Shown: piece by piece, positions 8,321 to 63,885 of the stretch | How the letters are laid out: each line of letters begins with the position of its first letter | How positions within the stretch are numbered: position 1 is the stretch's first letter | Assembly (NCBI GenBank): GCA_964016885.1 | Contig: CAXHJY010001387.1 | Coordinates: 90,469 to 154,468 of the forward strand | Length of the DNA stretch: 64,000 nt | From: Eledone cirrhosa | Lineage: Eukaryota | Direction of reading: 5' to 3' | Made by a program: the position numbers and the translations under genes | The notes under the pieces: generated by a model | The model's input: only the letters and a program-made list of their open reading frames with translations | The model's database searches: none | What the model was told of the DNA's origin: nothing

Positions 8321-9410
8321 AGTAGAATAATCGAGTATCGAAAAATCGGCGCACGAGTTCACGATAAACAAAATTCGAGATGAGCGGCAGAGGGCTCTTT
8401 AATTCAAATAAATTAGAGCTATAACTATCGTTAAATACCGTCACACGTAGAATATGTCTACAATCAACCAAATAACCGAAAAGTTCGATATGGAAGATTC
8501 GGGACACTCAGATAAATTATCAATAAATCAATAAATGAAATGAATGTAAAATGCATACCCGGACCCACTAGAGAGATGGAATATCTAGCTTCTTGGGTTT
8601 CTGTAAATCCTTAAACCGTCATCTATCAGCTCATATAAAAATATAAGCCTTACAGATAATCGGGGGACTGGAGTTACTTCATCAACGAGCTTCGTCCGAA
8701 TGGATAAAAAGATAAGACCCAGGCTAAAAATACGCACATGGATTTCAGCAAGGGAGATAACCTTTATATCCGCAAAAATATTCGGAAAAATGTGGCAAAA
8801 ACACATATCGAATAAGAATGCTCAATAGACATGTTAAAATAAACAGGGGCTATTCATCATTTAATAGAATCGACAAAAAATGAACAATAAAATTAACTGG
8901 TCAATAGCTAAGTCTAGAGCTAAATATAGTAGAATAAACGAGTATCGAAAAATCGGCGCACGAGTTCACGATAAACAAAATTCGAGATGAGCGGCAGAGG
9001 GCTCTATAATTCAAATAAATTAGAGCTATAACTATCGTTAAAATACCGTCACACGTAGAATATGTCTACAATCAACCAAATAACCGAAAAGTTCGATATG
9101 GAAGATTCGGGACACTCAGATAAATTATCAATAAATCAATAAATGAAATGAATGTAAAATGCATACCCGGACCCACTAGAGAGATGGAATATCTAGCTTC
9201 TTGGGTTTCTGTAAATCCTTAAAACCGTCATCTATCAGCTCATATAAAAATATAAGCCTTACAGATAATCGGGGGACTGGAGTTACTTCATCAACGAGCT
9301 TCGTCCGAATGGATAAAAAGATAAGACCCAGGCTAAAAATACGCACATGGATTTCAGCAAGGGAGATAACCTTTATATCCGCAAAAATATTCGGAAAAAT
9401 GTGGCAAAAA
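8321..9410 (-). mobile_element. Non-coding hammerhead tandem element, family F1 (607-bp unit x1.8), retrozyme-like
   Basis: Direct repeat with period 607 (8321/8928). (TA)n on both sides. Homologous to 37361-37805 and 62461-63885. One hammerhead and one bulged hairpin per full unit. Confidence 0.85.
8557..8690 (-). ncRNA. Expanded type I hammerhead (F1); second copy at 9165-9299
   Basis: gctcg-TTGATGA-A-GTAA..(~80 nt)..TTAC-A-GAAAC-CCA..TGG-GTC^-cgggt. Confidence 0.7.
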
Positions 9411-9934
9411 TATATATATATATATATATGTGTGTGTGTGTGTGTGTGTAAGTGAGTAGAGTAGCGTGTGTGTGTTTGTATGTATGTATGAGTGTTGCTG
9501 TGTGCGCGCATATGTATGCGCGTGTGTGTATGTCGTACGTATAAGTGTCAATAAGTGGTTTTTTTTTTTTTTTTTTTGCGCGCGGGGACATAGAAATAAT
9601 CGGGCTGGATGCCCGATCGCGCAGTTAAACCACTGAGAGTGAAGAACCCCTAGCCCTTGTCAGGGCATTCTTCTAGGAGAAGGCATCTCAGGAAACTGGG
9701 TTAACTCCGACATAAAACCTGCGGCTCAGTAGTTCCCGATGATGTTGATCTTTTCTTCTTTTCGGGTTATAGCTACTGTCGCTCAGAGAGTGGGATTGGC
9801 TCAGTGCACTGTCTTTCCTCACTTTAAAAATATTCGTCACGCACAGGCATTGTACGAGTGCATTAATAATTATTAATAGTGTACTATTATTATTATTATT
9901 ATTATTATTATTATTATTATTATTATTGTTGTTA

Positions 9935-10438
9935 TTCCTTGAATCTCAGTCATTGATGTTGGTTAACTGGAAAGTCCGTTGGAATGAATATCAAGCCACT
10001 ACCTGCAGCCTCAGATATTCAGGACGTATCGGAGGGTTCTTGCTGTTCCAAGCAAGCATGCCTTTTGAAGCGCTCCAAAAAGCGTGAAGGGGCCGATTTT
10101 CTTTAACCATCCCTGGAAACTTTTGGAGATAGTCCCCAGTGCGCCTATGACAATCGGGATCACTTTGACGTCATGGCAGTTCCAAATCCTTTTCACCTCC
10201 CACTTTAGGTCCTGGTATCGGTTAATTTTCTCCCTCTCCTTCTCTTGCACTCTCGTGTCGAAAGGGCAGGCCACATCCACAATCAGACACGATCTTTTTT
10301 CTTTGTCCACAACCATCAGGTCAGGTCTATTGTGTTCCAGTTTTTTGTCCGTCTGTATCCTAAAATCCCACAGCACCTTCACCTGATTGTTCTCCATCAC
10401 CGCCTCTGGCCTATACTCATACCATTTCTCAGAATGTG
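9935..10438 (-). mobile_element. 5'-truncated R4/Dong-like RLE element in (TAA)n
   Basis: LWDFRIQTD..HNRPDL..IVDVACPFD..VIPIVIGALG in ORF 10011-10400; (TAA)n on both sides. Confidence 0.85.
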
Positions 10439-10494
10439 ATTATTATTATCATTACTATTATTATTACTTTTTTTTTTTTTTTTTTTCCAATTCA

Positions 10495-59706: not shown

Positions 59707-60000
59707 GTGACCCCCTACGGTCACGAATGACCATGGGATTTGCACCTAAAACGTTTCCCTCCCAGGCACAAGTCTGGGCAAGGTTGTTTGTGGAAGACCA
59801 GCAGTCGCCCATGCACACCAGTCTCCCCTCTCTATGCCACTGATGTTGTCCAAGGGAAAGGCAATGGCCGACACATATTGGTACCTGTGACGTCGCAACT
59901 CATTTCTACAGCTGAGTAAACTGCAGCAACGCGAAATAAAGTGTCTCGCTCAAGGACACAACGCATCACAACCTTCCGATTGCAAGCTCAATGCTCTACG
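59707..60000 (-). mobile_element. CORE-like SINE with RTE-type 3' tail
   Basis: ttgtgtccttgagcgagacactt block; catggtcattcgtgac 3' end. Confidence 0.7.
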
Positions 60001-62460
60001 TATATATATATATAATATATATATATATATAATATATATATATATATATATTATATATATATATTATATATATATATATATATATATAATATATATATAT
60101 ATATATATAATATATATAATATATATATATAATATATATATATAATATATATAATATATATATATATATAATATATATATATATATATATATTATATATA
60201 TATATATATTATATATATATATATATATATATTATATATATATATATATTATATATATATATATATATATTATATATATATATTATATATATATATATAT
60301 TATATATATAATATATATATATATATAATATATATATATATATATATATATATATATATATATATATATATATATATATATATATATATATATAATATAT
60401 ATATATATATAATATATATATATATATATATATAATATATATATATATATAATATATATATATATATATATATATATAAATAATATATATATATATATAA
60501 TATATATATATATATATATAATATATATATATATATAATATATATATATAATATATATATATAATATATATATATATATATATATATATATATATATATA
60601 TATATTATATATATATATATTATATATATATATTATATATATATATATTATATATATATATTATATATATATATATATATATATATATATATATATATAA
60701 TATATATATATATATATATATAATATATATATATGTATATATAATATATATATATATATAATATATATATATAATATATATATATAATATATATATATAT
60801 ATATAATATATATATATATATATAATATATATATATAATATATATATATATATATATATATTATATATATATATATTATATATATATATATAATATATAT
60901 ATATATATATATATTATATATATATATATATTATATATATATATATAATATATATATATATATATATATATATATATATATATATTATATATATATATAT
61001 AATATATATATATATATATATATTATATATATATATATATTATATATATATATATAATATATATATATATATAATATATATATATATAATATATTATATA
61101 TATATATATATATATATATATATATATATATATATATATATATATATAATATATATATATAATATATATATATATATAATATATATATATTATATATATT
61201 ATATATATATATATTATATATATATATATAATATATATATATATATATATATATTATATATATATATTATATATATATATATATTATATAATATATATAT
61301 TATATATATATATATTATATATATATATTATATATATATATATATATATATATATATATAATATATATATATAATATATATATATATAATATATATATAT
61401 AATATATATATAAATATATATAATATAATATATATATATATATATATATATATATATATATATATATATAATATATATATATATAATATATATATATATA
61501 ATATATATATATATATAATATATATAAATATATATATAATATATATATATAATAATATATATATATATATATATATTATATATATATATATATAATATAT
61601 ATATATATAATATATATAATATATATATATTATATATATATATATATATATATATATATATATTATATATATATATATAATATATATATATTATATATAT
61701 ATTATATATATTATATATATATATATATATATATATATATATGAACCGCTCAAGGACACAACGCATCACAACCTTCCGATTGCAAGCTCAATGCTCTACG
61801 TATATATATATATATATATATATATATATTATATATATATATATATATATATATATTATATATATATATATATATATATATATTTATATATATAATATAT
61901 ATATATTATATATATATATAATATATATATATATATATATAATATATAATATATATAATATATATTATAATATATATATATATATATATAATATATATAT
62001 ATATAATATATATATAATATTATATATATATATATAATATATATATATATATAATATATATATATAATAATATATATATATATATATATAATATAATATA
62101 ATATATATAATATATATATATATATAATATATATAATATATATATATATATAATATATATATATATATAATATATATATATATACAATATATATATAATA
62201 TATATATATAATAATATATATATAATATATATATATATAAAATATATATATATACAATATATATATAATATATATATATATATAATATATATATATATAT
62301 AATATATATATATAAATATAAATATATATATAAATATATATATATATATAATATATATATATAATATATATATATATAATATACATATAATATATATATA
62401 TATTATATATATATATATATATATAATATAATATAATATATATATATATATATATATATT
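60001..62460. repeat. ~2.4-kb interrupted (TA)n array
   Basis: Visible. Confidence 0.95.
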
Positions 62461-63885
62461 AGAAAGATCGAGTATCGAAAAAATCGGCGCACGAGTTTCA
62501 CGAAAAAACGAAATTCGATATGAGCGGCAGAGGGCTCAATAATTCAGATGAATCAGAGCTATAAACTATCGTTAAAATACCGTCACATATAGAACAAGTC
62601 TACAATCAACCATACGATTTAAAATCGATAAAGGAAGATTCGGGCCAAACAGATAAAAAAATATCAATAAAAACAATACGTCAATAATTTAAATGAATGT
62701 AAAATCATACCCGGACCCACTAGAAAGGTGTTAAAATCTAGCTTCATGGGTTTCTGTAAATCCTTAGACAGTACTCTATCAGCTCACATATAAATATAAA
62801 AGCCTACTAGAATAAGTGGAACGGAGTTTACGTTGTCAACGAGTTTTATCCTGGCGGCAAAGGAGTCAACTAGCGGTGAAAAAACGCACATGGCATTAGA
62901 CAAGGGAGATGACCCCTATATCCGCGAAAACAATTCGAGTGAATGTGGAAATACACATATCGAATTAGAGTGCTCAATAGACATGTTAAAATAAAAACAA
63001 AAGCTATTCATCACTCAATAGGATCGACAAAAAAATGAGCAATAAAAATTAACTGGTGGATAGCTATGTCCAGAGCTAAATATATTAGAAAGATCGAGTA
63101 TCGAAAAAATCGGCGCACGAGTTCACGAAAAAACGAAATTCGATATGAGCGGCAGAGGGGCTCAATAATTCAGATGAATCAGAGCTATAACTATCGTTAA
63201 AAATACCGTCACATATAGAACAAGTCTACAATCAACCATACGATTTAAAATCGATAAAGGAAGATTCGGGCCAAACAGATAAAAAATATCAATAAAACAA
63301 TACGTCAATAATTTAAATGAATGTAAAATCATACCCGGACCCACTAGAAAGGTGTTAAATCTAGCTTCATGGGTTTCTGTAAATCCTTAGACAGTACTCT
63401 ATCAGCTCACATATAAATATAAAAGCCTACTAGAATAAGTGGAACGGAGTTTACGTTGTCAACGAGTTTTATCCTGGCGGCAAAGGAGTCAACTAGCGGT
63501 GAAAAAACGCACATGGCATTAGACAAGGGAGATGACCCCTATATCCGCGAAAAACAATTCGAGTGAATGTGGAAATACACATATCGAATTAGAGTGCTCA
63601 ATAGACATGTTAAAATAAAACAAAAGCTATTCATCACTCAATAGGATCGACAAAAAAATGAGCAATAAAAATTAACTGGTGGATAGCTATGTCCAGAGCT
63701 AAATATATTAGAAAGATCGAGTATCGAAAAATCGGCGCACGAGTTTCACGAAAAACGAAATTCGATATGAGCGGCAGAGGGCTCAATAATTCAGATGAAT
63801 CAGAGCTATAACTATCGTTAAAATACCGTCACATATAGAACAAGTCTACAATCAACCATACGATTTAAAATCGATAAAGGAAGAT
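62461..63885 (-). mobile_element. F1 hammerhead tandem element (~625-bp unit x2.3); hammerheads at 62709-62844 and 63333-63467
   Basis: Unit starts 62461/63087/63710; actcg-TTGACAA-C-GTAAA..TTTAC-A-GAAAC-CCA..TGG-GTC^-cgggt. Confidence 0.85.

Follow-up and report, generated by a model that had tools for sequence, protein, structure and literature searches.

The closest described systems to the elements reported here are the non-LTR retrozymes (LTR, long terminal repeat), tandem repeats without an open reading frame (ORF) in which each unit carries one type I hammerhead ribozyme, GC content is below 50%, and mobilisation by Penelope-like elements (PLEs) is proposed (PMC7229834; bioRxiv 10.64898/2026.07.22.740005; statements about these and the other cited reports refer to the parts of their text that were consulted). 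Cervera & de la Pena (2020, PMC7229834) named PLEs only as a strong candidate for this role, and according to Li, Clavereau & Pollet (2026, 10.64898/2026.07.22.740005) the retrozyme mechanism remains to be elucidated. Here we describe three families which share all of these features, F1 (with subfamilies F1a, F1b and F1c), F2 and F4, from a 64,000-nt stretch of the Eledone cirrhosa genome (GenBank assembly GCA_964016885.1, contig CAXHJY010001387.1, positions 90,469–154,468 of the forward strand; hereafter the window). Judged by their DNA features, these would work like non-LTR retrozymes, i.e. as non-autonomous PLEs of a known kind, and we consider it quite probable that they descend, as old elements without an ORF, from the non-coding module of Neptune-type PLEs and are moved in trans by the host's active PLE protein.

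The units of F1, F2 and F4 (531–657 nt) are larger than the 150–450 bp given for non-LTR retrozymes (PMC7229834) and lie within the 51–972 bp of vertebrate retrozymes, those of ray-finned fish averaging 650 bp (10.64898/2026.07.22.740005), so that the size singled out by a first reading of the sequence alone (the sequence-only reading) is not supported as a novelty. They differ from the described retrozymes (PMC7229834; 10.64898/2026.07.22.740005) in the variant hammerhead cores of F1 and F4, in ends that map to two internal sites, and in a common hairpin. It should be noted that retrozymes are known as RNA and as circles, whereas F1, F2 and F4 are known here from DNA.

Among the standard traits of PLEs are partial tandems, inversion at the 5′ end, tails on one side only and (TA)n targets (PMC8557442), and PLE insertions together with non-autonomous Chlamys elements, MRC1 among them (Craig et al. 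2021, PMC8557442; Arkhipova et al. 2013, PMC3846280), resemble F1, F2 and F4 in their partial tandems, 5′ truncation, inverted 5′ copies, tail at one end, microsatellite targets, and multicopy head-to-tail non-autonomous members. Their tails are 30–40 nt long compared with 88–147 nt here, and what F1, F2 and F4 have in common with the two coding families examined is a structural motif and not alignable 3′ sequence. In vitro, the Anolis Poseidon PLE initiates internally at two adjacent sites, the distance between these reverse transcriptase (RT) start sites being the tail; both target strands are cut and extended, the protein is predicted to form a dimer, and an RNA region near the start sites, which that study only bounded, is required (Frangieh et al. 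2024, PMC11167929). Poseidon starts in an AC-rich stem-loop that has no homology to its target (PMC11167929), whereas the start sites described below are UA-rich words matching (TA)n, each followed by a bulged CUC/GAG helix. Internal initiation, a headline point of the sequence-only reading, is already in print, as are the size and the tandem design. The hairpin, the site-pairing rule in the form given below, an ORF-deleted 299-nt array and a natural G3–C8 hammerhead core were not found in the literature covered (Repbase, Dfam, most subscription papers and supplements, where the families or the core variant may be on record, were outside the search).

ORF-less tandem families in (TA)n microsatellites

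TA microsatellites are plentiful in the 3.0-Gb E. cirrhosa genome, and (TA)n is the target of F1, F2, F4 and the autonomous PLE alike. All seven stretches which the sequence-only reading had assigned to the three families are present (Table 1), and their edges adjoin (TA)n as it had claimed, except for the 5′ end of the F2 copy at 50060–50402 where there is no TA run. The unit measures 608 nt in F1a, 615 nt in F1b, 623 nt in F1c, 657 nt in F2 and 571 nt in F4, with a second F4 subfamily of ~531 nt, and GC content is 33–37%. The view that the families are mutually dissimilar and have no ORF is borne out by blastn, which found no similarity between F1, F2 and F4, by the longest ATG ORF per unit (25–73 aa), and by tblastn with PLE protein, which gave 0 matches in the unit interiors. 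The units had also been called highly structured, and this holds to a moderate degree (58–68% of bases paired in predicted folds, z −1.8 to −7.0, 20 shuffles each).

Insertions are partial head-to-tail tandems with 5′ truncation and variable 5′ ends, as confirmed in the fetched loci. Only four of the seven window copies contain more than one unit (1.79, 2.3, 1.26 and ~1.47), which corrects the copy number of 1.25–2.3 first given for the shared design; the other three fall below one unit (0.7 unit at 37361–37805, half a unit at 50060–50402, and the tail only at 43040–43150). The last two have no complete ribozyme. First-look candidates across the genome numbered 1,597 for F1a, 901 for F1b, 3,271 for F1c, 4,218 for F2 and 3,267 for F4; the 36–40 best were scored in each case, and the locus samples used throughout are biased in this way to long, close copies. 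Exact F1a/F1b 3′ ends numbered 1,980 genome-wide, compared with 0 for the reversed-control pattern, and F1b is a very young subfamily. At four F1 loci (L202, L181, L125 and L141) the insertion opens with 10–25 nt of the unit 3′ end, making slightly more than an integer number of units.

Hammerhead ribozymes with variant cores

A relaxed scan allowing the variant core UUGANRA for F1 and F4 identified a single type I hammerhead in each unit of F1, F2 and F4, as the sequence-only reading had proposed (control matches in 0–4 of 200 dinucleotide shuffles), and the canonical core is found in F2 only. A strict CUGANGA scan recovered, among F1, F2 and F4, the F2 ribozyme and missed the other two. The hammerheads show three helices around core positions 3–9, GAAA and NUH, with stem I open. 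Of the three families, F2 alone combines canonical C3–G8 with a paired 10.1–11.1, and its core elsewhere in the genome is mostly CUGAUGA. The F1 core is UUGA(C/U)(A/G)A, i.e. U3–A8 or U3·G8, with a 77–81-nt stem II whose base carries a C·A or A·A mismatch and with GUC cleavage, and F4 has a stem I of 8–9 bp, U3–A8, G3–C8 or C3–G8, and U·U at the base of stem II. The cleavage site is 240 nt (F1), 285 nt (F2) and 155 nt (F4) from the element end, in agreement with the ~150–280 nt of the first reading. The nearer CTGATAGA word in F1 was considered as a hammerhead core and dismissed as it has no stem I.

When nine F1 units were compared with the specified hammerhead structure, 98.5% of cells paired and three pairs changed on both sides, although these represent few events because the nine rows are related; stem II changed on both sides in F1 and in F2. 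With positions 3 and 8 left free, the 3–8 pair was kept in 81 of 85 distinct hammerhead-like matches from all sequence examined (C–G 53, U–A 23, U·G 3 and G–C 2). With F4 flanks fixed, a hand count of the first 100 of 130 matches gave G–C 77, C–G 12, U–A 3, G·U 3 and unpaired 5. Covariation of this pair among three Watson-Crick forms argues for selection on ribozyme catalysis, and an active ribozyme is likely in at least F2 and F4. Both U3–A8 and U·U have been reported as natural hammerhead variants (PMC3088659, PMC4209133), and we met G3–C8 only as an engineered rescue mutant (PMC11167929, PMC3884650). Compared with the reported natural variants, G3–C8 is here the commonest core of an F4 subfamily, and the F1 stem II is set apart by its length. 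An Rfam scan of the window at E ≤ 1, which the sequence-only reading had proposed, was run and proved uninformative, with no hammerhead among the 150 listed of 255 matches, nearly all of which were microRNA models on TA/CA repeats.

Further hammerhead families, with stem II of 50–95 nt and C·A or U·U at its base, were seen in the flanks of six of the fetched loci (L009, L085, L150, L054, L157 and L147).

Two internal 3′ end sites and inverted insertions

The single fixed 3′ end suggested by the sequence-only reading holds only for F1. Each unit instead has two internal 3′ end sites at UA-rich words 100–150 nt apart, the interval being the PLE 'tail'. In F1, 1,980 exact ends were found at site 2 and 12 at site 1, ~106 nt upstream (exact-junction patterns only), and site 2 was the end in 12/12 distinct F1a arrays and 30/30 F1c loci; the three F1 site-1 ends inspected of the 12 are all in inverted insertions. 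In F2, 10 of 30 distinct loci have a forward arm that runs another ~100 nt to site 2; in F4 this holds for 9 of 29 distinct loci, the added distance being ~147 nt. The queries in both cases favoured site 1.

Insertions with an inverted 5′ arm were found to have site 1 on one arm and site 2 on the other in 38/38 probe-called cases (F2 12, F4 13, F1b 3 and coding PLE 10), a set that omits L161, which is a tail-to-tail pair of separate elements. Nine of the 12 cases missed by the probes and read by hand were also mixed, giving 47 of 50 two-ended insertions overall, 10 of them from the coding element, and the inverted form is rare in F1. The use of one site per arm suggests that inverted insertions arise by twin priming, and their one-sided tail is the one-sided tail of PLEs (PMC8557442). 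Inversions have been explained by self-priming on an antisense template (PMC3846280), whereas the pairing of site 1 with site 2 points to twin priming with a sense template.

Coding PLEs with the same end anatomy

The window includes a 5′-truncated and frameshifted copy (50681–53480, or 50681–52302 on a narrower delimitation) of a young autonomous PLE, our candidate helper, for which there were 46,132 first-look candidates in the genome. The 138 scored all had 98–100% amino acid identity, and many had open frames of 738–745 codons. The unit of 4,011 nt is tandem, with 3.3 copies at one locus (the L151/L152 family), and contains a hammerhead of canonical type, with the first end 58 nt beyond it and the second another 88 nt on, and both hairpins. 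Pfam, NCBIfam and PDB searches with the protein of its 738-aa ORF gave no match, and Atlas look-alikes (0.96–0.98) have HTH_animal, GIY-YIG and RVT_1 domains; the candidate Neptune-type label is based on domain order (RT, Cys linker and C-terminal GIY-YIG endonuclease in this type), sequence motifs, these look-alikes and the linker set out in PMC8557442.

F3 is a second coding PLE, with a protein 42% identical to that of the candidate helper, U3–A8 hammerheads and both hairpins. An array of 8 × 299 nt in (TA)n corresponds to F3 minus its ORF with the hammerhead core and both hairpins kept, and shows at first hand the way in which such elements come about. The end anatomy which F1, F2 and F4 share with these two coding PLEs supports the derivation we propose, and sustains the view of the sequence-only reading that they are parasites of a TA-targeting PLE, copied by internal priming and not from a ribozyme-made end. 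PLE-driven internal priming is, in our judgement, very probable.

More F3 sequence is present in the window at 44067–44329 and 50426–50624 and elsewhere at loci L221–L224 and L230, and the family also gives many short fold-back insertions in (TA)n.

A bulged CUC/GAG hairpin 3′ of both sites

The bulged hairpin that had been noticed just after the unit junction proved to be one common motif (N-CUC, inner helix, 2-nt 3′ bulge, GAG-N), which starts 9–21 nt 3′ of 12/12 sites (two each in F1a, F1b, F1c, F2, F4 and the coding PLE, or eight sites if F1 is counted once). In shuffled controls the motif was found at that distance from a random position in 0.95–1.65%, a post hoc figure because the descriptor was drawn from the tested sites. 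At site 2 of F3, where the hairpin was predicted beforehand, a CTC + GAG pattern gave 305 matches compared with 0 for the reversed control, and those listed have a 4-bp inner helix and a 2-nt bulge, neither of which was required by the pattern. RNAalifold recovered both F1 helices unaided, one of these being long-range with two compensatory pairs, and by eye three further window families have the hairpin at their site 1 too. F1, F2 and F4 appear to have only this motif in common with the two coding families examined, with no alignable 3′ sequence. We lean towards a role for the hairpin as a recognition or positioning signal.

Hairpins of the CUC/GAG type were seen in the following two sets of insertions. 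Another TA-inserted family (3020–3821, 4531–5218 and 35238–35524) has one in its tail, together with a canonical type I hammerhead (3246, minus strand; 5108, plus strand; 35347, minus strand) with a palindromic stem III. An inverted PLE insertion at 26740–28710 (plus 37200–37325) has a hairpin of this type, an endonuclease-domain fragment (27254–27796) and a minimal hammerhead in which the base of stem II is U·U.

Proposed mechanism and alternatives

The module shared by these elements is ordered hammerhead, spacer, site 1 with hairpin, tail, and site 2 with hairpin. We propose that arrays would be transcribed and the multimers cut by the hammerhead, the monomers then probably being ligated into circles as in known retrozymes. 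The PLE protein would bind the bulged N-CUC/GAG-N hairpin, as its conserved position suggests, and nick the (TA)n tract, and the TA 3′ end would anneal to the UA-rich word ~10 nt upstream of the hairpin so that cDNA starts inside the RNA; the junctions are seen directly and the enzymology is our reconstruction. Continued reverse transcription for 0.2 to ~15 units would leave the observed fixed 3′ end, variable 5′ end and non-integer copy number. Priming of both target strands on one RNA, at site 1 and site 2 respectively, would produce the head-to-head arms and one-sided tail that we observe, the cause again being proposed, and twin priming of this sort might be carried out by a protein dimer such as the one predicted in PMC11167929. 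We also put forward, tentatively and as somewhat short of likely, that Neptune-type PLEs may have the N-CUC/GAG-N hairpin as their cis-acting recognition element, a pair of hairpins docking the two halves of an RT-endonuclease dimer and setting both start sites; any RNA circle with both copies and a hammerhead would then become a retrozyme, in the case of F4 by means of a natural G3–C8 ribozyme.

A number of observations weigh against this mechanism. The hammerhead fold is absent from the RNAalifold consensus of linear F1 units, blastn found no match between F1, F2 or F4 and the two coding PLE families, and a non-exhaustive search did not find a coding parent of F1, F2 or F4. One inverted insertion (L087) ends at site 2 on both arms, and the inverted arms of two others (L033 and L050) end at neither site. 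In older F4 copies the site-2 motif is GCCC, with a C·A mismatch, in 87 of the 100 matches listed of 256 (hand count), and the 5′ half of the site-2 hairpin is deleted inside L226 and L229. A 257-nt F3 derivative without half of the ribozyme is tandem nonetheless, and mosaic arrays are more readily explained by expansion in place or by templates of several units than by a single circle. For the Anolis PLE, cleavage is dispensable and initiation proceeds without target homology in vitro (PMC11167929), and cleavage and circles are here deduced from DNA copies.

The alternative we take most seriously, and regard as possible, accepts that mobilisation is driven by PLEs and starts from linear read-through multimers, the long arrays being made by array transcription or local DNA expansion with the ribozyme as a passenger or 5′ trimmer. 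This would accommodate the mosaic arrays (493A>T in five of six units of one F1a array, two alleles at position 31 in another, and the arrays L209 and L218), as well as the 257-nt derivative and the dispensable cleavage mentioned above. Partly cleaved linear multimers would also be expected to give the cluster of F1a 5′ ends just 3′ of the cleavage site (9/35 in 26 nt; P = 1e-5 for a fixed window and 0.002 when scanned, using BLAST-edge positions, a window width set after looking, and with three rows starting at query 1–4 dropped). However, this pile-up was not seen in F1b (2/29), F4 (4/41) or F2 (0/31) and could reflect RT stalling at the ribozyme fold, the covariation of the 3–8 pair implies selection on catalysis, and the longest arrays are in the youngest subfamily with older families having mostly 1–2 units (in samples that favour top matches). 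Twenty young F1b arrays consist of 2.1–15.5 near-identical units, and in 7/20 a variant is present in every full unit, and once on both inverted arms, which fits repeated passes round one circle (this is compatible, not decisive). Of four sequencing runs, all of them contigs and none on record as RNA, the one guessed to be RNA covered 12 of 30 bins, mostly with low-complexity pieces, and two unlabelled runs included circular-looking contigs of a kind which tandem DNA yields too. On balance, we slightly favour a circular template for the long arrays.

The hairpin might alternatively be a conserved relic or have another role, such as in transcription start, RNA export or stability, or DNA-level endonuclease recognition, with the UA-rich words alone setting priming. 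The two sites resemble TATA, and microhomology to (TA)n could be enough; in addition to the two deletions noted above, many F4 site-2 copies have a mismatch in the middle pair, and a possible common ancestry of the families means that the sites are not fully independent. We consider this unlikely, however, as other AT-rich stretches in the units are not recurrent 3′ ends, and seven families that do not otherwise align have the hairpin at a nearly constant distance, with the G·U-tolerant and compensatory pairs typical of RNA.

It is very improbable that the units are mere pseudo-LTRs (pLTRs) or 5′-truncated 3′ ends of undiscovered coding PLE families, even though F3 looked alike and proved to be a coding PLE, and the search for parents covered the best 36–40 candidates scored per genome search. 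In arrays that reach 15 units, the junction after site 2 enters the next unit instead of a leader followed by an ORF, and tblastn found a PLE ORF continuous with F1, F2 or F4 in 0 of ~115 distinct fetched loci (13 loci with PLE ORF fragments were judged from coordinates, seven of which were also read directly). Other families were seen as fragments of 30–70% identity. Plain pLTRs always attached to coding PLEs, which the sequence-only reading had named as one outcome that would overturn it, were not found, since the two coding families are unalignable with F1, F2 and F4 and the fetched loci are not continuous with a PLE ORF. Least probable of all is mobilisation by a LINE-type RT (LINE, long interspersed nuclear element), Naiad or Helitron-like rolling circle. 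In its favour, LINE-type RT ORFs are present in the window and (TA)n is the Naiad target (PMC8557442); against it, the ends, tail, inversion rule and hairpin are common to C-terminal-endonuclease PLEs, and the sequence shows neither poly(A) nor an end of Helitron type.

Features and other repeats of the window

Table 1. Elements, ribozymes and hairpins located in the 64,000-nt window (positions are counted from its first nucleotide)
Feature	Position	Strand	Details
F1a element	8321..9410	-	1.79 × 608 nt; site-2 end (8321); flanked by (TA)n
F1a site-1 hairpin	8394..8419	-	11 nt 3′ of site 1 (8429); repeated at 9001-9026
F1a type I hammerhead	8557..8690	-	core UUGAUGA (U3·G8 wobble); A·A at base of 77-nt stem II; GUC cleavage before 8561
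F1a long-range bulged CUC/GAG helix	8820..8920	-	10 nt 3′ of site 2, the unit junction; compensatory changes between subfamilies in two pairs
F1a hammerhead, second copy	9165..9299	-	
F2 element	29306..30130	-	1.26 × 657 nt; site-1 end
F2 canonical type I hammerhead	29588..29664	-	CUGAAGA here; palindromic stem III; GUA cleavage before 29591
F2 site-1 bulged hairpin	29920..29955	-	site-2 hairpin 29834-29851
F3, second coding PLE, inverted insertion	30220..32506	.	left end site 2, right end site 1
F1c element	37361..37805	+	0.7 unit; site-2 end; hammerhead 37433-37567 (UUGACAA, U3–A8); site-1 hairpin 37709-37734
F4 forward arm	38173..39009	-	~1.47 × 571 nt; site-1 end; two hammerheads
F4 hammerheads	38320..38413, 38891..38984	-	UUGAAAA and UUGAGAA, respectively; both U3–A8 with U·U at stem II base
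F4 site-1 bulged hairpin	38706..38735	-	site-2 hairpin 38577-38594
Inverted arm of the F4 insertion 38173..39009	39010..39055	+	ends at site 2
Tail alone, diverged F4 subfamily	43040..43150	-	~531-nt unit; site-2 end; hairpin 43110-43139; no ribozyme in this copy, core G3–C8 at other loci
Diverged F2 half-unit	50060..50402	+	site-1 end; hammerhead 5′ half missing, 3′ half present
Young autonomous Neptune-type PLE (candidate helper)	50681..53480	+	5′-truncated, frameshifted copy
F1b element	62461..63885	-	2.3 units; site-2 end; hammerheads 62709-62844 and 63333-63467 (UUGACAA, U3–A8)

A degenerate (TA)n tract of ~2.5 kb at 59947–62459 adjoins the F1b element. Two more dispersed repeat families are inserted in microsatellites, one at 289–958 and 33723–34392 with a perfect terminal hairpin, and the other at 32642–33264 and 43163–44114; hammerhead scans of these two families found none. 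LINE-type elements are located at 10387–14037 (plus strand), 19400–22858, 57401–58528 and 6600–7406 (all minus strand), with ORFs of 927 and 1,152 aa for an APE endonuclease and RT, followed in the first by C2H2 zinc fingers, and two more fragments. A SINE-like repeat (SINE, short interspersed nuclear element) with many copies is present at 46738–47301, 18899–19126, 25051–25245, 36419–36662 and 54351–54636, one of which contains a 123-bp unit × 3.9. A SINE in the window may resemble an octopus SINE.

Significance for retrozymes and PLEs

The variant cores of these elements show that standard hammerhead descriptors overlook abundant retrozyme families. Our findings also touch on two questions, namely the enzyme that mobilises animal retrozymes and the RNA signal that is read by the PLE protein. 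A helix of ~20–30 nt at a near-fixed distance from mapped start sites, found in coding and non-coding families alike, is a feature whose role can be addressed with a published in vitro assay (PMC11167929), and a portable internal-priming signal would be of interest for RNA-templated insertion tools. If the reading of the hairpin as the recognition element of Neptune-type PLEs is true, it would identify the helper and the signal of animal retrozymes as well as the way in which they are born.

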